Part shown: positions 265 to 32,000 of the stretch, piece by piece
Numbering within the stretch: position 1 is the stretch's first letter
How the letters are laid out: every line of letters begins with the position of its first letter
The notes under the pieces: model-generated
The model's database searches: none
Told to the model about the DNA's origin: nothing
What the model saw: the letters and a program-made list of their open reading frames with translations, nothing else
Translations under genes and position numbers: made by a program
NCBI GenBank assembly: GCA_964573185.1
Contig: CAZNIQ010000004.1
Location: 3,679 to 35,678, forward strand
DNA from: Candidatus Woesearchaeota archaeon
Lineage (GTDB): Archaea; Nanobdellota; Nanobdellia; Nanobdellales; CAZNIQ01
Reading direction: 5' to 3'
DNA length: 32,000 nt

Positions 265-869
265 TCTTTCAGGTAAAAAAGGTAAAAAACACATATATAA
301 TAGGAGTTGACCATGATTTAATAAATAAAGAAGAATTTTTGAAGAGATACAACATTATAAAAGAAAAATACTACTCTTTTTTTGAAAAACTTGTTAAACA
401 CGATTATATATTTTTTATAGAGGCTAGATTTGATTACTTTGTAAATTTTCTATTAAATAAGGATCCTAGAATGTACGCTTTTGGCACTGCTGGTGCTATT
501 TTGAAATTACTCGTAGAACTGGTGATGGAATTGAACAAGTTAGGAAAAACTGCTTTTATTGTTGCAGATCCCGCCCATGATGTATTAATAGATAAATACC
601 CTTTGCTAAAAGCAATGGTTGAAAGTCCTTCTCTTATATATAAAACAGTGGCGTCTCTTTTAAAAGAAAGATTACCTTTTGACCCCACAATAACAATAGC
701 TCCTGCTCAAACCTCCTTTGATATCTGGCTTTGGTATGGAATTATAAAACATTTTTCCCAAAATGAAAAATATTTGTCTAAATTAAAGAAAATTTTGAAT
801 AAAAAGGTAAGTAGAAGGGGTTTTCTTAAGTTTTTGGGGAAAGCCATTCTTGGTTACAGCATTTACTAG
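261..869 (+). CDS. hypothetical protein with a C-terminal Tat-signal-like SRRGFLK motif
   Basis: 202-aa ORF. Its TTG start overlaps the rpoN stop (TTGA). No family was recognised. Confidence 0.5.
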   Translation: MIFQVKKVKNTYIIGVDHDLINKEEFLKRYNIIKEKYYSFFEKLVKHDYIFFIEARFDYFVNFLLNKDPRMYAFGTAGAILKLLVELVMELNKLGKTAFIVADPAHDVLIDKYPLLKAMVESPSLIYKTVASLLKERLPFDPTITIAPAQTSFDIWLWYGIIKHFSQNEKYLSKLKKILNKKVSRRGFLKFLGKAILGYSIY

Positions 870-884
870 TTCCTAGCTTCTACG

Positions 885-1196
885 TTGTTTATGATATTTC
901 CTCAAACGAACTATATTTCTATTAATGCTACCGACTTTAGGAACGTTATAATTTCAAAAATTGTTCAAAAAATAAAAGGTAAAAAAGTAATTATTAATGG
1001 AGCAGGGCACATACCGGGATTGGAATTCTACTTAAGCCATTCAGTAGCTCTTGAGACAAAATTCGAATTTTATGATGCTCTATCAAAACTTCTGACGAAG
1101 AAAAACCTAGGAGAATTGTGGTACATTTATTATAGATTGGCAAAAATGGGAAATAAGATTTATTTTGCCGCAAAATACGATAAGATTAAGATTTAG
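885..1196 (+). CDS. hypothetical protein
   Basis: 103-aa ORF with a TTG start at 885 and an ATG at 891. The TAG stop overlaps the first base of tRNA-Pro. No family was recognised. Confidence 0.45.
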   Translation: MFMIFPQTNYISINATDFRNVIISKIVQKIKGKKVIINGAGHIPGLEFYLSHSVALETKFEFYDALSKLLTKKNLGELWYIYYRLAKMGNKIYFAAKYDKIKI

Positions 1197-1266
1197 GGGC
1201 CGTAGGCTAGCGGTAGGCTGCCGGGTTCGGGTCCCGGTGACCCGGGTTCGAATCCCGGCGGCCCCA
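1196..1266 (+). tRNA. tRNA-Pro (anticodon CGG)
   Basis: Hand-folded cloverleaf. Acceptor stem GGGGCCG/CGGCCCC. Anticodon stem CCGGG/CCCGG with loop TTCGGGT. T arm CCGGG-TTCGAAT-CCCGG. Discriminator A. No encoded CCA. Confidence 0.9.
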
Positions 1267-1272
1267 TTTGAT
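1233..1272 (+). repeat. attL core (3' part of the functional tRNA-Pro plus 6 nt)
   Basis: CCCGGTGACCCGGGTTCGAATCCCGGCGGCCCCATTTGAT is repeated at 4325-4364 with 2 mismatches (1250 G/A and 1269 T/A). Confidence 0.8.
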
Positions 1273-1411
1273 ATTTACCAGAAAACAACAATTCTTTTAG
1301 TATAGATCGAATTTCATTGTCTTTTAGAAGATCTTTTAACTCTCTCAAAAGTTTAAGCTTTTTCTTAAGATCATGATAAGCTCTTTTAGTTTGAGACATG
1401 ATAATCCCGGG

Positions 1412-1672
1412 CTACTCCATTAGGATACTATAATTAACCTGATACTTTTTCCCATCCCATAAGATGATCCCTTTATGATTTAGTAACTCTAATAGTTCAT
1501 AGACTGTTTCTTTATCTAATCTTAATTCGTACATTAAGACTGCTACTAACTCCTCTATTGTGGGTAGTTCCTTTTGTTTTGCATAATAAAAGGAATAGAA
1601 ATCAATTATAATTGTAAGTGTTTGTTTTAGCAATTTCCTTAGTTCTTCCGGAGGGAATTGTTCTAAAAGCAT
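1412..1672 (-). CDS. small winged-helix DNA-binding protein (element-borne)
   Basis: 86 aa. The pattern ELPTIEELVAVLMYELRLDKETVYELLELLNHKGIILWDGKKYQV fits helix-turn-helix plus a beta-wing. Confidence 0.55.
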   Translation of the reverse strand: MLLEQFPPEELRKLLKQTLTIIIDFYSFYYAKQKELPTIEELVAVLMYELRLDKETVYELLELLNHKGIILWDGKKYQVNYSILME

Positions 1673-1732
1673 CTTTTATATTTGGATATATAATTACTTT
1701 TTGTACTGAACGATACTTTCTTTTATTATAAT

Positions 1733-1860
1733 TATCCATTTTTAGTTTTTTGCAATTTCTTCTTTTCCTCCTCTTCCTGCATTTTCTTTAATTCCTTTAG
1801 TTTTTCTAAAACCCATTGTGGCAAACCAAGTTCTTTTACAAAATCTTCGGGTTTTAGCAT
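1733..1860 (-). CDS. small ORF, 42 aa (MLKPEDFVKELGLPQWVLEKLKELKKMQEEEEKKKLQKTKNG)
   Basis: Hand-translated ATG-to-TAA ORF, below the cutoff of the ORF track. It may be an HTH protein. It runs in the same direction as the wHTH gene. Confidence 0.3.
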
Positions 1861-1955
1861 GATAAAATTGCAAAAGAAAAACAATCTGTTTTTATTTTTC
1901 CAGATCATACTTTTCTGTACATAATTTTATAAAAACCTTAGCTATAAAAAATTAC

Positions 1956-3032
1956 ATGGTACTATACATAGGCTTCTTAAAAGCAGTTTTACAAGATTCT
2001 CTTTCTTTCAAAAAATCTTATACTACAAAAAAATACAAGTTTTATTTGGAAGGAGAAAAGGATAATACATATTATTATAGAACCTATATTTTACCTAAAG
2101 TAAAAGGAAGTGTTGTGTCTTTTCCCATTCTTTTAGGTACTATAAAGCTTAAGAGAATAGAAAAAACAAATATTTTGATTGTAGAGATAAATCCTAAATC
2201 TGGTAGAGAAAAGGAAGATATAAAGAAAGCTTATTCCTCACTTGTAAAAAGTCTGCCAGGTATTTATTATATAAACAGTTATATTATTTTTTCAGAATTT
2301 TTCAAAAGATATTTGAAGGGAATACTTTCAGAGTACAATCTCTATATTCAAAAAATCGATTTTTTATACATTACTAAATACGGTAAAATAGGAGAATACA
2401 AAGGAAAAGAGTACGTGTCAAAATATGGAAGCGTTTTAGATTTAAAAGATATTAATGAACTTTATGAAGATTTAAAAAGAAAGGGTATTGAAAAAATAAT
2501 ACCGTATGTTTTTTCAATAACAGATCGTAAGTTTCCTATAGCAATATTTACTGTAAAAAGAAGCTTGATCGCCGTAACGGATTATGGATTAAGAAAATAT
2601 GAAGAGGTAATTGAACAGATTAAAAATAAGATTATTGAACTGGTTTTAAAAATAGAAAATATATCTAAATATAAAACAGGAAATCGAGTCAATAACAAGT
2701 TTGCAACTTCCAGTACAATAGATATAATTAAAGAAGAATACTATTTTGTTAGAAATTCCTATTTAAGCCTATTAAAAAAAGAAGAATTATTAAAGTTGGA
2801 AGAAGCTATATTGAGCAACCCTATTAGCTACTTCATTGCAGAGGATAAAGAAGGAAGGATTGATATAATATCACTAAGGAAAGAGGGAGATAACGTAGAA
2901 ATATATGTAACGCCATTTGATTTATTTAGAAATACAGTATCACCTGTTATAATAGATAAGTGGGAAGCTCTCAGATATATTACATACTCGGAAAATGATG
3001 ATCTCTTCAGAAATATTCAAAAAATTACTTGA
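1956..3032 (+). CDS. hypothetical protein (element cargo 1)
   Basis: 358-aa ORF with an ATG start. It overlaps the next ORF by 38 nt, which suggests an operon. No motif was recognised. Confidence 0.6.
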   Translation: MVLYIGFLKAVLQDSLSFKKSYTTKKYKFYLEGEKDNTYYYRTYILPKVKGSVVSFPILLGTIKLKRIEKTNILIVEINPKSGREKEDIKKAYSSLVKSLPGIYYINSYIIFSEFFKRYLKGILSEYNLYIQKIDFLYITKYGKIGEYKGKEYVSKYGSVLDLKDINELYEDLKRKGIEKIIPYVFSITDRKFPIAIFTVKRSLIAVTDYGLRKYEEVIEQIKNKIIELVLKIENISKYKTGNRVNNKFATSSTIDIIKEEYYFVRNSYLSLLKKEELLKLEEAILSNPISYFIAEDKEGRIDIISLRKEGDNVEIYVTPFDLFRNTVSPVIIDKWEALRYITYSENDDLFRNIQKIT

Positions 3033-3984
3033 AAATTATAAATACGAAATTATTGATTTTTATTTTTATAATTTAATATTTTTGGGTAGTCTGGCTTCAG
3101 CTATAATTGCAGGAAAATATTATCCTATTGAAATAGAGAAAAATGGAAAATACGATATTTTAGTAGAATTAGATGATAGAACTTTAGATTTTGAAATTAC
3201 AAGAATAATTAGCTCCTCCAACAGAGAGAAGTTAATAGATTATATAAACAAGAAAAAACGCGCTGCAGAAGAGATAAAGGCTACTCCTGTATTAGTAGTA
3301 TTGGTAGAAGAAGGTAACAAGGATCTTTTTGAAATAAAGAAAGTTTTAGATGATTCAAAACTTTCCTACATCATTGCAAAATTTAAAATAGAAAAGGATT
3401 ATGATATATTTATAGATTTTGAAACGTATACAGAAGATCTTATTATTAAAGATATTTTTGAATTTATTAAAAATATTCATAAAAGAGTAACCAAAACTCC
3501 CCCCGATACCCTTAGAGCGCTGTTATTAAAACTTCCCTTTATTCAAGATTTTGAATCAAAGCCAGATTACGAAATTCTAACCTTAGTTTCAATTTTTAAT
3601 CATCTTTATTATGTTATAAAAAGTTTTAGAGATATAAACATAGAGAGATATTTGTATTCCGATTTGCCAAAAGAGTTTGTTGGAATATTAAAAGAACATT
3701 TAATTAATAACCTAAGGAATTTAGATTTAGAAAGAAAGGACATTGAAAATTACATAGAGCTTTTTATTGAAAATTCAAAAATTCGAGAACGAATTGAAAG
3801 AATATTTAAATATCGTCTATATTATAGAATTCGGGATTTTTGTCGGGATCTTAAAAAGTTATCTGAAAATAAAATTAAGAAATGTTTAGAGAAGCTTATA
3901 GAAGTAAAAGAGTGCTACGAAAAAGATGATAATAAAAATAAAAGAAAATACAAAGAGTGTTTAAAGAGGATCCTTGGAATCTAA
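2995..3984 (+). CDS. hypothetical protein (element cargo 2)
   Basis: 329-aa ORF. The N-terminal segment KYDILVELDDRTLDFEITRI weakly resembles a PD-(D/E)xK core, but this is not demonstrable by eye. Confidence 0.6.
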   Translation: MMISSEIFKKLLENYKYEIIDFYFYNLIFLGSLASAIIAGKYYPIEIEKNGKYDILVELDDRTLDFEITRIISSSNREKLIDYINKKKRAAEEIKATPVLVVLVEEGNKDLFEIKKVLDDSKLSYIIAKFKIEKDYDIFIDFETYTEDLIIKDIFEFIKNIHKRVTKTPPDTLRALLLKLPFIQDFESKPDYEILTLVSIFNHLYYVIKSFRDINIERYLYSDLPKEFVGILKEHLINNLRNLDLERKDIENYIELFIENSKIRERIERIFKYRLYYRIRDFCRDLKKLSENKIKKCLEKLIEVKECYEKDDNKNKRKYKECLKRILGI

Positions 3985-4161
3985 AAAATAACTATAATTT
4001 TCCAATAACATCTAAAAATATGTTTTCTATAAAGTTTTATTATTTTACCCACCTTTTCTCTTGCAACCTCCTGAATAACTTACTTTACCTCTCCCTTAGA
4101 GATCTTGATAACTTCTACAAATGCTCATCTTTGCTCTTTACTTTTGAGAATTTAAATGTTA

Positions 4162-4359
4162 TTAAATCTTGTCTATTCTATAGAAGAGATCCTTGATGTG
4201 GCTTTCAGAGAGATTCCGGGTTACCAACCAATAGTAGAATTCATCGAGAAGATCCAAATTTACAGAAACAAATAAATACTGACGAAATATTGAAAAGTTT
4301 GAAATTGTTTGAATGGGCTTGGGACCCGGTGACCCGGGTTCAAATCCCGGCGGCCCCAT
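4162..4359 (-). pseudogene. integrase fragment starting in attR, covering only the SAM-like/core-binding region, with the catalytic domain missing
   Basis: The ORF reads MGPPGFEPGSPGPKPIQ...FRQYLFVSVNLDLLDEFYYWLVTRNLSESHIKDLFYRIDKI*. Downstream to about 3990 only short, stop-interrupted frames remain (TFKFSKVKSKDEHL*, EVIKISKGEVK*, VIQEVAREKVGKIIKLYRKHIF...). Confidence 0.6.
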
Positions 4360-4364
4360 TAGAT
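4313..4364 (+). repeat. attR: a 3' fragment of tRNA-Pro (anticodon loop through discriminator) plus 6 nt
   Basis: The sequence is ATGGG-CTTGGGA-CCCGG-TGAC-CCGGG-TTCAAAT-CCCGG-CGGCCCC-A. It has no acceptor 5' strand and no D arm. The loop carries UGG rather than CGG. Confidence 0.8.
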
Positions 4365-4772
4365 TTTGTTTTCTGTTCTTGTTATAGTAAAATAAATTAA
4401 TGTTAATGCAATATTTGAAACATTACTAACTTATCTTTATAACTTACATCTCCTAATTTTAATACTTCTTCTAATAACGTAATCGCTTATATAATAAATA
4501 TAACTAAAATTTCCATTAGGGTTCGCAGGTGCTTTAATTCACGTAATTTATTATCTCAATATACAATACTTCCATATAGAATTATAAGCGGGATAAAAGA
4601 AAAGAAAATATTTTGGAGAGTTGTATGTATTTTAAAAAAAGATTATGAAGAACGAAACAAACACAAGAACGAAATATATTATCATTGTATAGATAAAAAA
4701 TTTTGCAAATTCTAGTATTATTCCTTTTATTTTTGACTTATCCTTAATAAAGTTTAAAAACATATTATTTTA

Positions 4773-4828
4773 GGCCCGGTACCGCTATCGGGTTGAGACG
4801 TGATACCTGACTTCAAACCGGGCCGACA
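4773..4828 (+). ncRNA. H/ACA box guide sRNA candidate (single hairpin)
   Basis: 7-bp lower stem GGCCCGG/CCGGGCC. Pocket strands TACCGCTAT and ACTTCAAA. 5-bp upper stem CGGGT/ACCTG. K-loop with tandem G.A pairs (GA...GA) and a 5-nt loop. ACA lies 1 nt after the stem, about 16 nt from the top of the pocket. A TATA-like TTAATAAA lies about 26 nt upstream. Confidence 0.6.
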
Positions 4829-4829
4829 A

Positions 4830-5918
4830 TTATGTGTTAATTTTAAATCTTAGTATTCCGCCTATTTTAAAGTTGGAAAATTGTTCTCCTTCTGGCGTTT
4901 TCTTTGAAATAATTTCCACTTTCGTTCCCATTTGTTCTGCAAGTTCTATTAATTCTTTTAATTTTTCTTTATCAAAGTCTTCTGAAACCAATAATACTTC
5001 TACAGCACCCATTTCTAAAGCTTTTTTCGTATCTTCATATCCATAAACGACCATATCGGGATCTTTTGCTAGATAATAGAAAAACTTCTCTAATAATTTC
5101 TTTTCTCTTATCAAGGAAGTTTTTTCTAACACATCCTTAGCTCTTTCAACTAATTCTCTTAATCCGTACTCATCTGAGTATCCGGTGTCAACCACTGCTA
5201 TTATTTTTTGTTTGAGGTAATATGGCAAATAGTCTCCTTCTACAAACTCTTCTTTCAAAGGTCCAGGTCCTCCTACAATTATTCCCCTTAAATTATCTTT
5301 GTATTTGTCAAAATACTCTCTAGCTTTCTCTCCTATATATTTTAACCAATTATGTGTTTCCTGTTCAATTATTCTCTGAAATCTTACAGCAGATTGTCCT
5401 CCTTTATGATGTTTCGACGGAACCCAAGAATCCCTAGATTCTAAAACAATTATATCTTTTCCTTTTAGCAAACCAATAGCCATAGAACCTCTATCTAGGA
5501 CTATCAAACCGTAAACATCTTTATCTTCAAGTAATTTCTTTAGAGGATCTAAAACGAATTTTGAATCACAACGATATAATCTTATTCTTAAGGGTTCTGG
5601 AGGCTCTATAACCCACATTCTTATGTCAGTCTTATCCTTTCCAACATTCCCACAGAATATAATCAATCCCTTGTCTGGAATTTTCTTAAATTTCTTTAGA
5701 TAGTTTATGATTTTTGCTAAAGCTTCTGAAACATGTTGTCTTGTAGTTTTATCCTTTATGTTTTGTGCTGTTGAATATTCATAAGAAAGATGGTCTAAAA
5801 GCTTTGCTAAATCATAGCCAGCTGGGATATAATAACTAATCAATTCAGTACCTCTTCCCTCAATTTTCTCTAATTCTTCTATAAGCATTTTGAGCTTTAA
5901 CTTTTGAACATCATCCAT
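4830..5918 (-). CDS. prf1: peptide chain release factor aRF1
   Basis: 362 aa. It has the GGQ motif (HHKGGQSAVRF), the YxCxxxF motif (LYRCDSKF) and a NIKS-region variant (AQNIKDKTTR). Confidence 0.9.
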   Translation of the reverse strand: MDDVQKLKLKMLIEELEKIEGRGTELISYYIPAGYDLAKLLDHLSYEYSTAQNIKDKTTRQHVSEALAKIINYLKKFKKIPDKGLIIFCGNVGKDKTDIRMWVIEPPEPLRIRLYRCDSKFVLDPLKKLLEDKDVYGLIVLDRGSMAIGLLKGKDIIVLESRDSWVPSKHHKGGQSAVRFQRIIEQETHNWLKYIGEKAREYFDKYKDNLRGIIVGGPGPLKEEFVEGDYLPYYLKQKIIAVVDTGYSDEYGLRELVERAKDVLEKTSLIREKKLLEKFFYYLAKDPDMVVYGYEDTKKALEMGAVEVLLVSEDFDKEKLKELIELAEQMGTKVEIISKKTPEGEQFSNFKIGGILRFKINT

Positions 5919-5934: not shown

Positions 5935-8412
5935 TTAAGGCTTATAAATAATCTCTTTTACTTTTAAATAACTCTTTATCTCTTCTTCAAACGGCTTTAT
6001 ATCTTCTTCCTTAAAAGGTATTTCTATTTTTTCTATTTCTTCTTTCAATTTCAATCCCTTTTCAGTCTTCCACTTCCTTATATATGTAATAGCTTCTAGC
6101 ATTTTTCTTCCTTTCTCAAGAATTTCTTTATCATAGATTTCTACTTTAGGATATTCAGTCTCATGTATAGATTTCTTTCCTTCTCTTTCAGCAAACATTA
6201 TATTATAGATTTCTTCAGTAATAAATGGTAAGAACGGTGCTAGTATTCCAAGTATTTGTCTTAAAACATATAGTAATGTCCATTTTGCTGCTGGATCATT
6301 ATTTTTAACTCTTTCTTTAACTAGTTCTAAATAATTATCTGCAAATATTTCCCAAACAAATTTTCTTATTCTTTTTAGAGCCTCCCAAAATCTATATTCT
6401 TTCATTTGTCCTTCTACAAAATCTATTAATTCTTTTAACTCAGATATTATCCAGATGTCTATTGGTTTTAAGTCTACTTTCGTATTTAAATCTATATCTT
6501 TACAATTCATCCAAATATATCTTGATATATTCCAAAGTTTTATTAAGAATGATTGTCCAGCTTCTATGTCTTTCCATGTAAATCTATAATCATATCCGTG
6601 TGCAGCTAATAAAGCCCAATACCTAAAAGCGTCAGCAGGATATCTCTCTAAAACATCAAATGGTGTTACAACATTTCCTAAAGATTTTGACATTTTCCTT
6701 CCTTTCTCATCTACAATCATTCCGTTGATTAAAACCTCTTTCCAAGGTATTTTGCCTGTCAAAATATAAACCCTATATAATGTATTGAACAACCATGTTC
6801 TAATAATTTCATATCCTTGGGGTCTTAGATTAACTGGTACTTTCTCTTTAGCCAATCTGTAAGCTTCTTCAAATGATTTTCCATCTTTTACAAACGCATA
6901 AACCAATATTGCCAAAGGTGTTATTGATGATTCCACCCAGCAATCCAAAACGTCTTTTACAGGCTCTACTTCCTCTTCTTTACATCCATACTTCTCTAAA
7001 ATCTCTTTAGGCGGTTTTTCTAATCTAGGATCTACGGGTAATTTATCTTTCGGTGCAGGAATTATTATTTCTTTTCCGTCTTTTTTACATATCCAGAAAG
7101 GAAATGGACAACCCCAAACTCTTTGTCTAGAAATAACCCAATCCCAAGCTATAGAATTTATCCAATCAATTAATCTTTGCCTCATCTCTTCAGGATAGAA
7201 CTTTATTTCTTTTTGTATTTCTAATAACTTATCCTTGAATTCTTGAACTTTAAAGAACCATTGATATGTTGGTCTTAATTCTATAGGATGCTGACAATCA
7301 GATCTTTCTGTATGTGCTAAAACGTTATGTTCTATTTCTTTTAGATCATAAAGATAACCTTTTTCTTTCAAAATTTCAATAATCTTTTTCCTAGCTTCCT
7401 GAACCTTTAACCTCTCTATCTCTGGAATATTTGTATTGATTAATCTTCCTTTTTCATCAATTATTTCATAAACTGGTAAACCGTATCTCTTCTGCCAAAC
7501 GATGTCTTGCTCATCACCATAAGTACAAACCCATACAATACCTGTTCCAAACTCTGGATCAACATCTGGATCTGCCTTTAAAGAAACTGTTCTATCTATC
7601 AAAGGAATTCTTATTTTAATTTTTTCTAACTCTTCTTTTGTTAAAGTTCTTTTTATTTTTAACCCTTTTTCTTCAGCATATTTTTTTGAAACTATTAATT
7701 TTTCTTCAGTCTCAACATACTCTCCTTTATCTGAGAATAGGACTATAACACATGCAGGTAACATTTCAGGTCTAGTAGTTGCTATTAAAACGTACCTTCC
7801 ATCTTCGGTTGGCAATTTAATATAAGCTAAAATTCCTTTCATCTTTTTATATCCAACTTCTTGTGCAGAAACTGCAGTTTCACAGTTTGGACACCAATAA
7901 ACTGGATGTTTATCCCTGTATAATAATCCTTTTTCATACATTTCAATTAAAGTATATTGTGTTAGCTTTTTGTAAAGATCATCCATAGTCATATATTCTT
8001 TCTCCAAATCTTGTATTACTCCTGCTTTTAGAAAAGCTTCTTTCATCCTATCCCTAGCCCATAAAGTCCACTCTCTACAAGCTTTTATGAATTCTTCGAC
8101 ATTTTCCTTAGGTATTTTCTTTTTCTTTTCAATCTTTAATTCTGTAGGTAAGCCATGAACGTCCCAACCAATAGGAAAATAAACATTATATCCATGCATT
8201 CTCATATATCTTGCAATAAAATCCATCCAAACAAAACCAAAGACTGTACCTACATGAGGTTCACCAGAAGTAAATGGAGGAGGAGTGTCTATAATATATA
8301 CTTTATCCCATTTTTTAGGATCAAATCTGTAGATATAGAATAGATCCTTTGTCCATCTTTCTAACCACTTTTTTTCTATTTCTTTGAAGTTTGGTCTTTT
8401 AGGAAATTCCAT
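5935..8412 (-). CDS. valS: valyl-tRNA synthetase (class I aaRS)
   Basis: Motifs present: KMSKS, IDTPPPFTSGEPHVGT (HIGH region), GWDVHGLPTE and an editing-domain TTRPEM. The size fits archaeal ValRS. The ORF track starts at TTG 8433, but I prefer ATG 8412 (MEFPKRPNFKEIEKKW). Confidence 0.75.
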   Translation of the reverse strand: MEFPKRPNFKEIEKKWLERWTKDLFYIYRFDPKKWDKVYIIDTPPPFTSGEPHVGTVFGFVWMDFIARYMRMHGYNVYFPIGWDVHGLPTELKIEKKKKIPKENVEEFIKACREWTLWARDRMKEAFLKAGVIQDLEKEYMTMDDLYKKLTQYTLIEMYEKGLLYRDKHPVYWCPNCETAVSAQEVGYKKMKGILAYIKLPTEDGRYVLIATTRPEMLPACVIVLFSDKGEYVETEEKLIVSKKYAEEKGLKIKRTLTKEELEKIKIRIPLIDRTVSLKADPDVDPEFGTGIVWVCTYGDEQDIVWQKRYGLPVYEIIDEKGRLINTNIPEIERLKVQEARKKIIEILKEKGYLYDLKEIEHNVLAHTERSDCQHPIELRPTYQWFFKVQEFKDKLLEIQKEIKFYPEEMRQRLIDWINSIAWDWVISRQRVWGCPFPFWICKKDGKEIIIPAPKDKLPVDPRLEKPPKEILEKYGCKEEEVEPVKDVLDCWVESSITPLAILVYAFVKDGKSFEEAYRLAKEKVPVNLRPQGYEIIRTWLFNTLYRVYILTGKIPWKEVLINGMIVDEKGRKMSKSLGNVVTPFDVLERYPADAFRYWALLAAHGYDYRFTWKDIEAGQSFLIKLWNISRYIWMNCKDIDLNTKVDLKPIDIWIISELKELIDFVEGQMKEYRFWEALKRIRKFVWEIFADNYLELVKERVKNNDPAAKWTLLYVLRQILGILAPFLPFITEEIYNIMFAEREGKKSIHETEYPKVEIYDKEILEKGRKMLEAITYIRKWKTEKGLKLKEEIEKIEIPFKEEDIKPFEEEIKSYLKVKEIIYKP

Positions 8413-16324: not shown

Positions 16325-16923
16325 ATTCGAATTTCTTCTGCGAACCCAGAATTTATTAACATTTCGGCTACATCTTTTGGTAACGTAACTATCTCTTCTG
16401 GTTTATAAGGCCCATAGGTTTGTAGATCTGTACCGACGAACTCGGATATCTCCTTTACAATTCTAACAACTTTTACATTTCTCTCTTTTGGCAAACCAGA
16501 TGCTTTTAGTATTTTATTCAATTCCTTTCCTAATTCTTCTAATTTTGGTTTTTCTCCAGAAAGAACTGATTCTAAAACATATTTTCTAAAAGCTAATAAA
16601 GTATTAAAAAGTATTTTATATAATACTTTTTCCTCAATAGTTAATTTATCAATATCTTCGCTTTCAGATTTTAATCTTGAAGTTATCAATGCTAATTCTA
16701 ATATCTTTTTTTCCCTTAAATCATAAATATCTCTTATCAATAATTTCAAGTTTTCAAGTTCTATTCTAAGTTTTTTCAGCTCTTCCGTATCTATTTCCTT
16801 TACTTTCTCAATAATTCTGTTTAGTCTACTTATTTGATCTGCTACCTTTCTGTAAAATAGCTCATCCAATTTTTGGATACTTCTTAGATTTTTCTCCTTT
16901 TGATAAATTGAGAATAAGTTCAT
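16321..16923 (-). CDS. GINS complex subunit (Gins51-like)
   Basis: The C-terminal domain VRIVKEISEFVGTDLQTYGPYKPEEIVTLPKDVAEMLINSGFAEEI matches the Gins51 pattern. The gene lies next to the primase gene, as in other archaea. Confidence 0.65.
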   Translation of the reverse strand: MNLFSIYQKEKNLRSIQKLDELFYRKVADQISRLNRIIEKVKEIDTEELKKLRIELENLKLLIRDIYDLREKKILELALITSRLKSESEDIDKLTIEEKVLYKILFNTLLAFRKYVLESVLSGEKPKLEELGKELNKILKASGLPKERNVKVVRIVKEISEFVGTDLQTYGPYKPEEIVTLPKDVAEMLINSGFAEEIRI

Positions 16924-18266
16924 AATTTAAGTTTACCTTTTTCCTTTAAATATTTTTTATATGGATATTGTAGAGGATTTTTTATCAATTGGCAAATTTC
17001 ATCCGGTTCGCACACTCCCATATCTTTATAATAATTTTCGTTATTACAATTAGGAGGAAGATATTGCTTTTTCTTTTCTTCCCAAGTTTTTTTATGCCAC
17101 TCCCATTGATACTCTATGTATCTCTCCCTTAAAGGCTCAGGATTCCTTTCGTTCCATTCTTCTAAAAGTTGTTTAATCTCGTCCCATTCCCATCCAACAT
17201 GCTTCAAGAAGTTTATGAGAATAAATACAGCACGTTTTCTACCGTCTTCTAATCCTTGTAAGATCTTCTTAATACATGGCGGAAAATATTTTTCATCAAA
17301 TTTCTTTGGAAACTTTATTTTCTTCTTATCCTTTTGTATTTCTTCAATTATTTCTTCTCTTTCTCTTTCAGCAATAAACTCTCTCGTTAATTGTTCTAAC
17401 TTCTGTTTTTCTAATTTTTGCAATTCTTCCCATGCTAAAGCAGAATAGATTAATTCTGTAATCTCTTCTTTAACATTTTCAGTATCTAAAAATTTTGTTC
17501 CATCCCACTCATAATTATCTAAAGAAGCTTCTGATGGTTCAAAATACTTGATATCCTCTTCTCTTAAAGGAATTGAAAGCAAATTTGTTTTTTCATTTAA
17601 GGAAAAAGGCATACGGAAAAGGTGTCTAACTGAGATTAAAATGGTATCAATTGAAACTAACTTAAATACATCAAAAGAGTCTAAATTATATTTTTTAATT
17701 AATTCTTCTTCAGAAAAGTTCCTTAAAAGTTTTTTCTCTAAAGGTTCCTTAATTTTGTAAGCTATAAAAGAAGCTAAAGTTCTTGCTAAGTCTGGAAATA
17801 AATCTTTAGTTTTCTTTCCATCAAGTTCTTTAGGAAAAGCTTCCCATGGAATTGCTATATGAAAACCTTTACCTCCAGAAAACTTTATGCTATATGATTC
17901 AACGTTATAATCTTTTAATACTTTAAGAATTTCAAATAGTGCAAGTCTAGATAATTCCAAATCTTTTCCATCAATATCTATAATAAAATCCCAGCCTATT
18001 CTTAATTCATTTAACTCTTTTTTCTTCATTTTTGGAGATAACAACATTGGATCCTTCCATCTTTCCTCCGAAATATGAAAAGATATTGCTTTTTGTTTAA
18101 TCAACTCTAATATATCTCCTTCATTTTGGAGAATAAATGGTCTTTTTCCAAAAGCCCCAGATTCATATCTAAAAGTAAATTCTCTATTCTGAGCTACTCT
18201 AACCATCTCAGAAAGTATTTCTCTATTTTTTTGATAAAACTTTAAGAGCTTAAGCCTAATTCCCAT
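16920..18266 (-). CDS. DNA primase: PriS catalytic domain fused to a PriL-type Fe-S C-terminal domain
   Basis: The N-terminal part has the AEP motifs DFIIDIDGKD and SGGKGFHIAIPW. The C-terminal part has FPPCIKKIL...GRKRAVFILINFLKHVGW plus the cysteines PPNC, GVC and EIC, which could be Fe-S ligands. Confidence 0.8.
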   Translation of the reverse strand: MGIRLKLLKFYQKNREILSEMVRVAQNREFTFRYESGAFGKRPFILQNEGDILELIKQKAISFHISEERWKDPMLLSPKMKKKELNELRIGWDFIIDIDGKDLELSRLALFEILKVLKDYNVESYSIKFSGGKGFHIAIPWEAFPKELDGKKTKDLFPDLARTLASFIAYKIKEPLEKKLLRNFSEEELIKKYNLDSFDVFKLVSIDTILISVRHLFRMPFSLNEKTNLLSIPLREEDIKYFEPSEASLDNYEWDGTKFLDTENVKEEITELIYSALAWEELQKLEKQKLEQLTREFIAEREREEIIEEIQKDKKKIKFPKKFDEKYFPPCIKKILQGLEDGRKRAVFILINFLKHVGWEWDEIKQLLEEWNERNPEPLRERYIEYQWEWHKKTWEEKKKQYLPPNCNNENYYKDMGVCEPDEICQLIKNPLQYPYKKYLKEKGKLKL

Positions 18267-19719: not shown

Positions 19720-19935
19720 ATGCCTAAAGGGGTTAGAGGTAGATTAAAGAGAAAAGCTTGTATTAAATGTAAAGCAGTGGTTCCTTATGATACAAAAGTT
19801 TGTCCTGTTTGTGGTTCAACAGAATTTTCAGAGGATTTCGTAGGTTTAGTAGTAATTGTGGATACAGAAAAATCTCTAATCGCAAAAAAGTTAGGTATTA
19901 AAAAACCATTTACATATGCTCTAAAGGTAAGATGA
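19720..19935 (+). CDS. spt4: transcription elongation factor Spt4 (RpoE'')
   Basis: Zinc ribbon CIKCKAVV...CPVCGS followed by GLVVIVDTEKSLIAKKLGI...YALKV. Confidence 0.85.
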   Translation: MPKGVRGRLKRKACIKCKAVVPYDTKVCPVCGSTEFSEDFVGLVVIVDTEKSLIAKKLGIKKPFTYALKVR

Positions 19936-20744
19936 ATTATATAAGAGTTACAGATTTAGTAGATTATTTAATCTGTCCTAGAAAGGTTTATTTCAAATTG
20001 GTATTAGGGTTAGAAGAGGAAAAGAAAGAAGAGATGTTGAAAGGTGAAATAATACATAAGATCTTTGAGGAATTTAATGATAAAGAAGAAGAAATTGTTT
20101 ATGAGATTCTAGAGCCGGTACCTTATGATAAAATTTACAAACTGTATTATGACGCTTTCCGAGAGACAGTTGATTCGGTTTTAAATTCTTATGAAGAGGA
20201 ACTAAAAGAGTTTAATTTAAGTAAAGAAGAATTAAAGTTAGAAATTTTAGATCATTTCAAATATGAGATTGAGGATAGGGCAAAGAACGTTTATCAAACC
20301 ATGAAAGCTTTAGATCTATATGGTATTGAATTATGGGATGCTTTAGAACCTAAGATAAAGTCTGAAGTAGAATTAATTTCGGATGATTTAAAACTTGTAG
20401 GAAGAATAGATAGGATAGAGTTTTACAAGGATATAGCAATTCCCGTTGAAATTAAAACTGGAAATCGTATAGGTTTTATTCATAAATTTCAATTGCATGC
20501 TTACGCTTTATTGATTAGAGATAATTTCTCTTATTATGACATCCCATTAGGTTACGTTTATTATACAAAATTGAGAAAAAGAAAAGAGGTTAGGTTTTCA
20601 GAAAAAATATTCAAGATGGTTATAGAAGTAAGAAACAAGATATGGGATATTATTGAAGAACAGAAGATGCCAGAAGAAAGAAATGAAAAGCTCTGCTCAA
20701 AATGTCCATTTAGAGAACAATGCTTGAAATTAAAGGTAAAGTAG
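19932..20744 (+). CDS. Cas4/DUF83-like PD-(D/E)xK nuclease with Fe-S cysteines
   Basis: There is an N-terminal Cys (LICPRKVYF). The core reads GRIDRIE...PVEIKTG...QLHAYALL. The C-terminal cluster is CSKCPFREQC. No CRISPR array is nearby. Confidence 0.7.
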   Translation: MNYIRVTDLVDYLICPRKVYFKLVLGLEEEKKEEMLKGEIIHKIFEEFNDKEEEIVYEILEPVPYDKIYKLYYDAFRETVDSVLNSYEEELKEFNLSKEELKLEILDHFKYEIEDRAKNVYQTMKALDLYGIELWDALEPKIKSEVELISDDLKLVGRIDRIEFYKDIAIPVEIKTGNRIGFIHKFQLHAYALLIRDNFSYYDIPLGYVYYTKLRKRKEVRFSEKIFKMVIEVRNKIWDIIEEQKMPEERNEKLCSKCPFREQCLKLKVK

Positions 20745-29974: not shown

Positions 29975-31296
29975 AAATAAATGTAGCGGTAATATTTCCA
30001 AACAAGAAGCATGGAGGAATTTATTCACTCGGACCTATGTATGTTGAAACTTACTTTAATTTAGATAAAAGATTTGAGGCAAAAAGATATTTTTTAGATG
30101 ATTTACCAAAAGGAAGACATCATATTTACATTTTTTCCATATCTTATGAATTGGATCTTCCAAAAGTACCAAAGATTTTAAAGAAACTTGGAATACCTCT
30201 GAATAAAGAAAAGAGAGAAGAATTAGTTATTGCTGGGGGACCTGCCGTTAGAATAAACCCTTATTATTTGAAAGATATTATTGATTTTGAAATCTTAGGT
30301 GAAGCAGAAGCAACAATTCCATATTTATATGATCCTCTATATAATTATTTTAAACATAAAAATAAGGGAAAGTTATTTGAAGAGATAAAAGATATTAACG
30401 GTATTTTTATTCCAGAGATAAAAGAAAAGGAAGAACACCCTTATATAGAAAATTTAGACGAAAGTATACATCCTATTTACCAACCCTTACCTAAAAAATT
30501 AACGAGGAAATATGTGTTTGGTAATGCTTTTATTTTAGAAGTTGCAAGATCTTGTCCTTTTAATTGCGCATTCTGTGACGTTAAATTTCTGTACAAGAAA
30601 TTTAGATTTAGATCTTTAGAAAAACTAAAGGAAATAATAAATTTAGGTTTAAAAATTAATGGGAAAAAGAAAATAGCATTGATTTCTCCTACACTTGTCC
30701 ATCCTAACCTATTTGATCTACTACATTATATTTTAGAAGAAAAGAAAACAAAATTTATGTTACCATCTTTAAGAGCTGAATTATTATTAAATGATAAGAT
30801 GTTAGAATTTATTAAGAGATCTGGTCAGAGAACTATTACATTAGCTCCAGAAACTGGATCTGAAGAATTAAGATTTCAATTGAATAAAAGAATTCCTGAT
30901 TGGGTCTTCTTTGAAATAGCTAAAAAAGCTAAAAATTACGGTATTAAAGAATTGAAGTTCTACTTTATTGTTGGGTTGCCGAATCAAGATATGGATGACG
31001 CTTATAGAATAGTGGAGTTTATTAAGAAAATAAAGGAATTATTCAAAGGGAAGATTTATGTTTCTGTAAATCCTTTTGTTCCAAAGAGAGGAAGCCTCTT
31101 AGAAAATGCTCCTTTCGATGAGAAGAAATCTAGAAAGATGATACAAATATTAAAGAAAGAATTTCGGAAATTAAAAATAAGGTATAAATTTAAGAGTATT
31201 AAAACTGCAAAGAAAGAATATTTAATTCAATGGGAACGCCGCCGCGGGGATTTGAACCCCGGACCTGCCGGTATCAACCGCCCCCACCCCGGCTAA
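29971..31296 (+). CDS. radical SAM protein (B12-binding-like N-terminus, COG1032-like)
   Basis: CxxxCxxC motif ARSCPFNCAFCDV. 441 aa. The last 20 or so codons are the antisense of the tRNA-Asn 3' exon and GC clamp. Confidence 0.7.
   Translation: MKINVAVIFPNKKHGGIYSLGPMYVETYFNLDKRFEAKRYFLDDLPKGRHHIYIFSISYELDLPKVPKILKKLGIPLNKEKREELVIAGGPAVRINPYYLKDIIDFEILGEAEATIPYLYDPLYNYFKHKNKGKLFEEIKDINGIFIPEIKEKEEHPYIENLDESIHPIYQPLPKKLTRKYVFGNAFILEVARSCPFNCAFCDVKFLYKKFRFRSLEKLKEIINLGLKINGKKKIALISPTLVHPNLFDLLHYILEEKKTKFMLPSLRAELLLNDKMLEFIKRSGQRTITLAPETGSEELRFQLNKRIPDWVFFEIAKKAKNYGIKELKFYFIVGLPNQDMDDAYRIVEFIKKIKELFKGKIYVSVNPFVPKRGSLLENAPFDEKKSRKMIQILKKEFRKLKIRYKFKSIKTAKKEYLIQWERRRGDLNPGPAGINRPHPG
31278..31293. 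repeat. GC clamp arm (inverted repeat partner of 31848-31863)
   Basis: On the plus strand, CCGCCCCCACCCCGGC here is the perfect 16/16 reverse complement of GCCGGGGTGGGGGCGG at 31848-31863. Confidence 0.9.
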
Positions 31297-31325
31297 AAAT
31301 TTAAATCTACAAAATAATTATTAAA

Positions 31326-31943
31326 ATGTTTTGGTATATTATTGGGCTTCTTGCTGGAGATGGCTATTTATATGATAGGAAATATCAAATAGGTTGGGTT
31401 TTAAATAAGAAAGAGAACGAAATTCAGAACAGAATAATAAATTTTCTCAAGGTATATCAAAGACTCGGATTTGTGAGGAAAATACATGTTATAGAGAGAA
31501 AAGATAATAGCGTTGAGATTAAAATTTATAGTAAGAGAATGTTTAACTTATTTAAGAAGTTTTGTGAAGGTAAAGGGAGATATAAAAGGATTTTAATATA
31601 TCCCAGCGAACTTGTAAAGAAAATTGAGCTGTTCTCTGGATTATTTGACGCTGAAGGTTCAGTAGTTGTATATAGAAATTCTCCCAGAGCATTTTTCGTA
31701 ACGGCATCAGAATACATTAGAGCTACTTTTGAGAAGCTATTACAAGATTTAAATATTAGATACTACATTTACAACGATAAAAGTTGTTTTAGATTTAAAT
31801 TAGCAATTACAGATTTGAGAAAAATTAATCATATGAGCATTAAGTTAGCCGGGGTGGGGGCGGTAACAGCTTCGGCCCTTTCGGTCGGCCGCTCTACCGG
31901 GCTGAGCTACGGCGGCTTTTTCAATATAACATGTTCAAAATAA
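31326..31943 (+). CDS. LAGLIDADG homing endonuclease (double-motif, monomeric type)
   Basis: Motif 1 is YIIGLLAGDGYL (D12). Motif 2 is LFSGLFDAEGSV (E110). The core is about 174 aa. The last 31 or so codons run antisense through the tRNA-Asn 5' exon. An A/T-rich TATA-like stretch at 31295-31306 lies 20-30 nt upstream of the ATG. Confidence 0.8.
   Translation: MFWYIIGLLAGDGYLYDRKYQIGWVLNKKENEIQNRIINFLKVYQRLGFVRKIHVIERKDNSVEIKIYSKRMFNLFKKFCEGKGRYKRILIYPSELVKKIELFSGLFDAEGSVVVYRNSPRAFFVTASEYIRATFEKLLQDLNIRYYIYNDKSCFRFKLAITDLRKINHMSIKLAGVGAVTASALSVGRSTGLSYGGFFNITCSK
31848..31863. repeat. GC clamp arm (inverted repeat partner of 31278-31293)
   Basis: See the partner arm. This arm lies immediately 3' of tRNA nucleotide 37 on the minus strand. 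Confidence 0.9.
31871..31885 (-). other. tRNA-Asn intron 1 (ACCGAAAGGGCCGAA), non-canonical position 30/31, with a BHB motif
   Basis: A 3-nt bulge, 4-bp helix, 3-nt bulge structure can be drawn. Cleavage after the second nucleotide of each bulge gives exactly the G30-G31 junction needed for a perfect anticodon stem. Confidence 0.6.
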
Positions 31944-31963: not shown

Positions 31964-32000
31964 CGGGCCGGCCGGGATTTGAACCCGGGACCTCCGGGTT
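31964..32000 (-). tRNA. tRNA, 3' portion only (truncated by the window edge), identity unknown
   Basis: The minus strand reads ...AGGUC CCGGG UUCAAAU CCCGG CCGGCCC G: variable region, T arm, acceptor 3' strand and discriminator G. Confidence 0.6.

Follow-up and report, generated by a model that had tools for sequence, protein, structure and literature searches.

We analysed a 32,000-nucleotide stretch (the window) from a Candidatus Woesearchaeota archaeon, comprising positions 3,679 to 35,678 of contig CAZNIQ010000004.1 in assembly GCA_964573185.1, and identified next to an intact tRNA-Pro(CGG) gene a 3.1-kb segment that we interpret as the decayed, immobile remnant of an integrated element. 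That the segment is such a remnant, whatever the type of integrase, is very likely. If so, the balance tips modestly towards an SSV-type layout, in which the attachment (att) site lies inside the integrase gene as in fusellovirus SSV1; overall, a remnant left by an SSV-type integrase is the reading we favour, with some reserve and not as proven. An earlier interpretation made from the DNA letters without database searches (the sequence-only reading) had proposed an integrated element in tRNA-Pro with an SSV-style partition of its integrase gene. The integration part of this proposal is borne out by the att geometry, reciprocal markers and lineage specificity described below. The partition part stands as far as att geometry, antisense reading and an in-frame fusion are concerned, but no catalytic domain accompanies them and the fused product would be no integrase.

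The intact tRNA-Pro(CGG) gene occupies positions 1196-1266 on the plus strand (called by ARAGORN; Rfam tRNA model, 65 bits). A repeat search of positions 800-5000 returned a single long direct repeat, 1223-1275 versus 4315-4367, with 47 of 53 positions identical and the two copies bracketing the 3.1 kb. The 40-nt repeat reported by the sequence-only reading was confirmed as the core of this repeat (1233-1272 versus 4325-4364, 38/40 identical, with perfect runs of 17 nt at 1233-1249 and 18 nt at 1251-1268), the similarity reaching beyond it in the 5′ direction into the anticodon arm. The left copy, attL (1223-1275), extends from the anticodon stem to 9 nt beyond the end of the tRNA, whose 3′ two-thirds it includes. 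The right copy, attR (4315-4367), is a partial tRNA without D-arm or acceptor 5′ strand, which Rfam recognised as a tRNA-like 3′ fragment only. When a 25-nt pattern from the core was searched with a tolerance of 3 mismatches, it matched exactly at both att copies and nowhere in 100 shuffles; a third match, with 3 mismatches, fell at 31964-31988 (minus strand) in an unrelated tRNA. The window end cuts this tRNA, leaving its 3′ half at 31964-32000 (Rfam tRNA 24.6 bits, 5′-truncated).

Two sets of markers distinguish the copies. The anticodon loop reads TTCGGGT (CGG) in the resident gene versus CTTGGGA in attR, the latter being a canonical UGG loop (C32, U33, G37 and A38), and T-loop position 57 is G in the resident gene and A in attR. 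All differences between the resident tRNA and the right copy fit a working tRNA. Since attR carries a UGG-type loop and A57, both compatible with function, it is not a duplicate of the resident tRNA-Pro(CGG); the differences are what would be expected if the right arm derived from an attP that imitates a tRNA-Pro(UGG) gene. Excision in silico, with the exchange placed within 1233-1249, produced a tRNA-Pro(CGG) identical at 71/71 positions to that of the closest other genome, GCA_054017035.1 (L025). The combination of a tRNA with a partial repeat, reciprocal markers and an excision that restores the native tRNA makes the arrangement a very likely product of site-specific recombination: the exchange restored a whole tRNA-Pro(CGG) at attL, and a headless copy of the tRNA remained at attR. 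The crossover most likely took place in the 17-nt run that separates the anticodon loop from T-loop position 57 (1233-1249).

The host is a Nanopusillaceae-like nanoarchaeon. The neighbouring release factor aRF1 has 62-70% identity with proteins of Nanopusillaceae and Nanobdella, and a 448-aa open reading frame (ORF) at 16920-18266 on the minus strand, adjoined by a GINS gene, carries PriS and PriL domains fused in one primase. A fused PriS-PriL primase is known from Nanoarchaeum equitans. Two other assemblies and two Logan contigs from this population also carry the element, with 100% identity (five carriers out of five). The three near-identical assemblies differ by 5 and 11 positions in 11.4 kb, nearly all of them in the valyl-tRNA synthetase gene (6152-7414) and none in the element; several of these synthetase polymorphisms fall within 6952-6961 and 7324-7414, a cluster that may reflect strain recombination or assembly chimerism.

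GCA_054017035.1 shares ~89-91% nucleotide identity with the window over the L13-CorC-S9-RpoN gene cluster, its RpoN protein is identical, and its aRF1 falls into the same 90%-identity protein cluster as that of the window. Its tRNA-Pro(CGG) follows the same RpoN cluster and is succeeded by unrelated sequence and an intron-containing tRNA-Phe gene. Its aRF1 gene is found on another contig, followed by a CCA-adding enzyme gene as in more distant relatives; tRNA-Pro(CGG) and aRF1 are at separate loci in this genome and the element is at neither. Comparison of 1267-4314 with the loci of all relatives revealed no nucleotide or translated similarity, and ORF358, a 358-aa ORFan of the element (1956-3032, plus strand), matched only itself among 5.8 billion proteins, a set that does hold the aRF1 (P0124) from a GCA_054017035.1 contig. 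Accordingly, the 3.1 kb can be classed as accessory and lineage-specific. As a separate observation, the tRNA-Phe(GAA) gene of GCA_054017035.1 (L025 10069-10177, minus strand) stands in inverted orientation 220 nt downstream of tRNA-Pro(CGG), and ~27-31 nt of its 3′ end are common with the att core, making it a possible secondary recombination target.

Two minus-strand ORFs cross the att copies. The int(N)-like ORF (1193-1399, 68 aa as integrated) consists of 44 element-specific codons followed by an antisense passage through the tRNA; it had been described as ending inside the repeat but actually spans the whole tRNA and stops at 1193-1195. The int(C)-like ORF (4162-4359, 65 aa, truncated) comprises 13 tRNA-encoded residues and a further 52 that resemble part of the SAM-like N-terminal domain of integrases. 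Both ORFs exist in the same frame across the core, as the sequence-only reading had stated, and both read it as MGPPGFEPGSPGP; its prediction that recircularisation would rebuild one in-frame ORF was reproduced exactly, in-silico excision giving the same 109-codon minus-strand frame. For random sequence of the element's composition, the probability of a frame open over the 44 + 47 codons that flank the junction is ~2e-4 per frame. The int(N) ORF begins 13 nt past the stop of a winged-helix gene, like the last gene of an operon, and its element-specific codons score as weakly coding-like (+0.12 per codon).

The only Pfam match of int(C) was to Phage_int_SAM_5, where it covered profile positions 28-77 of 98; E was 0.04 for all 65 residues and 0.02 (15.7 bits, below the cutoff of 22.3 bits) once the tRNA-encoded ones were left off and 52 remained. 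No integrase family in Pfam was matched by eight control ORFs taken from the window. Because the match begins at profile position 28, coding sequence upstream is needed, and only the fusion supplies it; the sub-threshold match of these 52 residues is the best independent support for an integrase origin. When the fusion was compared with nine SSV-type integrases by hhalign, the alignment was collinear (E = 1.1e-6, probability 91%) and placed the att-encoded stretch onto the annotated integration site of SSV1. At that site SSV1 Int reads ...DPPGFEPGTSGSG..., containing DPPGFEPG, and ASV1 and Aeropyrum globular virus 1 (AGV1) are alike in this respect; in AGV1 a tRNA is annotated antisense inside int. 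A hidden Markov model built from SSV-type integrases (SSV-Int HMM) placed int(C) at the top of 1147 six-frame segments of the window (E = 0.039). The comparison with integrase profiles that the sequence-only reading had suggested as a check gave matches of which one is sub-threshold and the other depends on the tRNA-encoded stretch.

We propose that a small circular element, whose attP imitated a tRNA-Pro(UGG) gene over its 3′ two-thirds, would have recombined site-specifically with the chromosomal tRNA-Pro(CGG). Most probably a tyrosine recombinase gene of the SSV ('suicidal') type extended across attP, antisense to the tRNA sequence, and integration would have split it into int(N) (1399-1193) and int(C) (4359-4162). 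A later internal deletion would then have left int(C) with no more than its first ~50 residues past att, at the cost of the entire catalytic domain and possibly other genes. A non-coding gap (3985-4161), in which all three minus-strand frames are full of stops, is located where the remainder of the recombinase would be expected and is presumably the deletion scar. In its present state the segment would be an att-flanked, integrase-less 3.1-kb cassette that, judged by its gene content, cannot excise on its own.

A number of observations weigh against this interpretation, and most of them concern the integrase. Without the tRNA-encoded stretch the hhalign comparison fell to E = 0.022 (probability 2%), and an HMM of SSV1 residues 82-175 gave E = 4.7 for int(C), rank 6/1147; similarity to SSV-type integrases is significant only with the PPGFEPG stretch included, and the likeness to an SSV1 'RQY...FY.YL...SE.T.KD' segment noted by the sequence-only reading is not significant without that stretch. 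The PPGFEPG likeness noted alongside it is real in that SSV1 has DPPGFEPG at its annotated site, yet it is a by-product, since PPGFEPG arises from antisense translation of any tRNA T-arm; other SSV-type integrases use another frame, RDLNPG (our integrase comparison; also PMC7253208). At the positions of T120 and Y124 (SSV1 numbering), which are invariant in the nine SSV-type integrases, the fusion has H and L. Neither in the fusion nor in the six frames of the window was a catalytic domain (Pfam Phage_integr_3, PF16795, or other) detected. As the 109-aa ORF stops inside the N-terminal SAM-like domain, with the next 177 nt (3985-4161) closed, and the catalytic domain is absent, its predicted product would not be an integrase. 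An exhaustive HMMER search of the fusion against 1.84 billion representative proteins found no full-length relative. The codon usage of int(C) is not coding-like (-0.31 per codon), which fits a pseudogene, and spurious stop-free frames of 60-100 codons are common in the window, so that ORF length alone is weaker evidence.

Further points on the same side concern the locus. The unoccupied tRNA-Pro(CGG) of GCA_054017035.1 agrees with the window in what precedes it but is followed by unrelated sequence, and the empty-site comparison that had been suggested thus provided an unoccupied target without a strict empty site. A search for an empty site on the aRF1 side found none among the relatives, because these have the CCA-adding enzyme gene after aRF1, and a scan of genome contigs with aRF1 gave no match. 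The element also coincides with a synteny breakpoint and with ~400 nt more of unique non-coding DNA: between attR and the aRF1 stop lies a 465-nt non-coding stretch (4368-4829), unusually long for a compact genome, of which 4368-4771 showed no similarity in relatives by blastn and tblastx, while the 57 nt that follow aRF1 (4772-4828) match the corresponding flank in GCA_054017035.1 at 95% identity. The unique part may be an old tRNA flank or a rearrangement scar. Another relative, L028, has G57 in its tRNA-Pro, making the assignment of the G57/A57 marker uncertain, and with that residue in L028 a crossover 3′ of position 57 is conceivable. Finally, the evidence comes entirely from metagenome assemblies.

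Three candidates were examined and set aside. The sole non-self HMMER match of the fusion, the 358-aa metagenomic protein P0002 (E = 1e-5), is a repeat-boosted chance match and no integrase: it is made of five ~70-aa repeats, matches 'FDEAVVWLKERGISES.IK' five times and contains 'FDEAVVWLKERGI.ES.IK' in each repeat. The idea that 3985-4161 preserves part of the integrase linker with a shifted frame ('VIQEVAREKVGKIIKLYRK' compared with 'IIHDEFADKILKAVKVKKA' in SSV1) was dropped, as the SSV-Int HMM was silent there, and a weak match of that HMM in the ORF at 16920-18266 corresponds to the fused primase. Apart from the int(N) ORF itself, a word-index search for homologs of the fusion came back empty; its tblastn comparison with phages yielded nothing above noise, and neither an IMG/VR scan with the fusion nor a PDB search with int(C) gave a match.

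The reading closest to ours, which we regard as rather unlikely though deserving serious attention, is that the element carried a conventional integrase of the pNOB8 type (type II), whose gene was wholly internal and was later deleted, the att-crossing ORFs being fortuitous or a small unrelated gene. No surviving catalytic domain shows where int lay, SSV-type integrases are not significantly matched outside the residues encoded by the tRNA, and most frames of the tRNA, with its high G+C, are free of stops in a window that holds long spurious ORFs; the non-coding-like codon usage of int(C) points the same way. Such a history would leave unexplained that the residues abutting attR match only an integrase N-terminal domain, from profile position 28 and with upstream coding sequence available only through the fusion, that an in-frame 109-codon fusion has p ~2e-4 per frame, and that int(N), weakly coding-like, has the tight spacing of an operon's final gene. 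Chromosomal rearrangements are frequent in nanoarchaea, and a rearrangement could instead have joined the tRNA-Pro(CGG) locus to another tRNA-Pro fragment, with no mobile element involved and the 3.1 kb consisting of ordinary lineage-specific genes. We consider this improbable. The synteny breakpoint relative to GCA_054017035.1 and more distant relatives, the equally unique ~400 nt to the right of attR, the host-like codons of the element ORFs and the lack of presence/absence polymorphism among the five population assemblies are all in keeping with it. A homologous exchange between two full tRNA genes, however, would give two full genes, and what is observed is one full and one headless copy, in direct orientation, around genes without detectable relatives, with reciprocal markers on the copies and integrase-like sequence abutting the headless one.

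Nanoarchaea are the classic home of split tRNAs, and the right copy could in principle be the 3′ piece of a tRNA-Pro(UGG) split as in N. equitans, its 5′ piece being encoded elsewhere and joined in trans. Its canonical UGG loop (C32, U33, G37, A38), its intact T-arm and acceptor 3′ strand, and the presence in the window of another tRNA interrupted by ~600 nt would suit this idea, which is nonetheless highly improbable: the copy begins within the anticodon stem with 3/5 stem bases rather than at position 37/38 or another clean junction, the sequence upstream is A+T-rich with no G+C-rich complementary leader, and the window contains no second 5′ piece of a tRNA-Pro. Nanopusillus acidilobi, moreover, was reported to be without trans-split tRNAs (PMC4935971).

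The layout of the remnant, as reconstructed here, matches that of type I ('suicidal') archaeal integrases, for which an att of ~40-50 bp at the 3′ end of a tRNA and a proline/glycine-rich att-encoded stretch are described (PMC8371274, PMC7253208). As in the SSV-type elements SSV1, SSV2, ASV1, AGV1, Thermococcus TPV1, pTN3 and pT26-2, attP imitates the 3′ part of a tRNA over ~40-50 bp, and an ORF crosses att antisense to the tRNA with a Pro/Gly-rich stretch (PPGFEPG in SSV1, ASV1 and AGV1). N- and C-terminal gene pieces likewise occur in frame at opposite ends, here as ORF architecture only, and a SAM-like segment follows att. The remnant differs from these elements in the absence of a catalytic domain and in not keeping the invariant T120 and Y124. 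Its 44 N-terminal residues lack the KGKYYVY...YIGPL motif of fusellovirus integrases, and it shares no cargo with fuselloviruses: comparison with SSV1 and a PHROG search of the element ORFs revealed none of the Fuselloviridae core genes (VP1/VP3, the DnaA-like protein and others). The host differs too, the Nanopusillaceae-like lineage being unmentioned for this family in a 2021 review of archaeal tyrosine recombinases, in which neither Nanoarchaeota nor DPANN is named (PMC8371274). Elements of the pNOB8 type have in common with the remnant a tRNA gene target and direct-repeat flanks, but there the int gene is intact and internal, whereas none was found here by Pfam or by the SSV-Int HMM over the window. 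Att-flanked remnants of integrative elements that lack an integrase are also known from bacteria, as the cis-mobilizable elements (CIMEs) of the streptococcal literature on integrative and conjugative elements. The nanoarchaeal cassette resembles CIMEs in having attL and attR flanks and no functional recombinase of its own, movement requiring a related integrase in trans; it differs in being archaeal, in its SSV-type att-in-gene layout and in that neither a helper element nor current mobility is in evidence.

Besides the int-like ORFs, the element has four cargo ORFs, all of which a codon-usage model built on the host's genes scores as coding-like (+0.27 to +0.31 per codon), in DNA of 26.9% G+C compared with 30.8% in the rest of the window, a difference that also speaks for accessory status. 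On the minus strand a 58-aa ORF (1732-1908), an 86-aa winged-helix (wHTH) DNA-binding protein (1412-1672) and int(N) follow one another with spacings of 59 and 12 nt. On the plus strand, ORF358 is overlapped by 38 nt by the 329-aa ORFan ORF329 (2995-3984). The two arrays diverge from a 47-nt A+T-rich intergenic region (1909-1955) with TATA-like runs, in which the promoters presumably lie; a scan for bacterial promoters and terminators was uninformative for an archaeon. The sequence-only reading had listed a wHTH protein and ORFs without assignable function, and the cargo is consistent with this: the wHTH protein, a putative regulator or other cargo, had sub-threshold Pfam matches to winged-helix families (WHD_MCM8, 7.9e-4; Phage_rep_O; Penicillinase_R), ORF358 and ORF329 had no match in Pfam, PHROGs, PADLOC, NCBIfam or PDB, and the 58-aa ORF matched no family in Pfam, PHROGs, PADLOC or NCBIfam; no usable match to any of the four cargo proteins came out of these collections. 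AlphaFold2 models of ORF358 and ORF329 were too poor to use (pLDDT 42 and 40).

The relatives in viromes and metagenomes for which the sequence-only reading had proposed a search did not emerge. IMG/VR held no match to ORF358, ORF329 or the fusion, and JGI metagenome contigs held none to ORF329; in the large protein searches ORF358 was the only cargo protein queried and the 109-aa fusion the other product. Blastn of the element against phage and plasmid collections gave no match, the 34-nt att core had zero matches in IMG/VR, GTDB genomes and JGI metagenomes, and a 26-nt core had zero in IMG/VR. Six-frame comparison of the element ORFs with the full SSV1 genome and with the integrase regions of eight other viruses revealed no similarity, and no replication, capsid or defence gene was found in the element.

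SSV-type integrases are documented in Sulfolobales, Thermococcales, Methanococcales and Aeropyrum viruses. Nanoarchaeales are ectosymbionts with genomes of ~0.5-0.6 Mb that are usually described without mobile elements. The genome paper of N. acidilobi mentions no integrase or mobile element, and the literature we searched contained no paper linking SSV-type or any other integrases with Nanopusillaceae or with Nanoarchaeota sensu stricto. The claim of the sequence-only reading that integrated elements are essentially undescribed in nanoarchaeal genomes holds in that literature for Nanoarchaeales and Nanopusillaceae, but is too broad for Woesearchaeales, placed in Nanoarchaeota by GTDB, from which head-tailed proviruses have been reported (PMC11705971). 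The remnant would extend a known kind of element, through a degenerate example, to a new host lineage of Nanopusillaceae-like nanoarchaea, and would be the first trace of such a mobile element in that lineage. It is a remnant only, with cargo of no known function and no active relative found. If real, even a dead element would mean that these reduced symbionts are or were targets of integrating plasmids or viruses of their own; it would also provide a concrete att sequence to seek in vent and hot-spring viromes and a possible cause of some of the scrambling of nanoarchaeal gene order. Tentatively, and as a conjecture that we think somewhat short of probable, the Nanoarchaeales may own an integrative mobilome in which SSV-type integrases act on nanoarchaeal tRNA genes, with the cassette as an archaeal counterpart of CIMEs still movable by a related integrase and the synteny breakpoint as the outcome of integrase-driven rearrangement. 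Integrase-driven rearrangement of the chromosome has reportedly been shown for pTN3 in Thermococcus.

Elsewhere in the window, a gene for a Cas4/PD-(D/E)XK nuclease lies at 19932-20744 on the plus strand (Pfam Cas_Cas4, 4.5e-23); the window ORFs of at least 140 aa scanned with Pfam included no other cas family, no search for CRISPR arrays having been made. The tRNA interrupted by ~600 nt is situated at 31231-31916 on the minus strand, with its acceptor 5′ strand and D-arm at ~31884-31916 and its T-arm and acceptor 3′ strand at 31238-31275. ARAGORN called it tRNA-Lys(TTT) with a 585-nt intron, details of which are doubtful. The insert encodes a 205-aa LAGLIDADG ORF (31326-31943) on the strand opposite the tRNA, an arrangement with an analogue in GCA_054017035.1 (L030 7431-8442), where a tRNA-Tyr has a 937-nt intron and an antisense LAGLIDADG-like ORF. 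At its two ends (31271-31290 and 31845-31862) the insert carries a G+C-rich inverted repeat, perfect over 16 nt, and the arrangement resembles the leader helix of N. equitans split tRNAs formed in cis.

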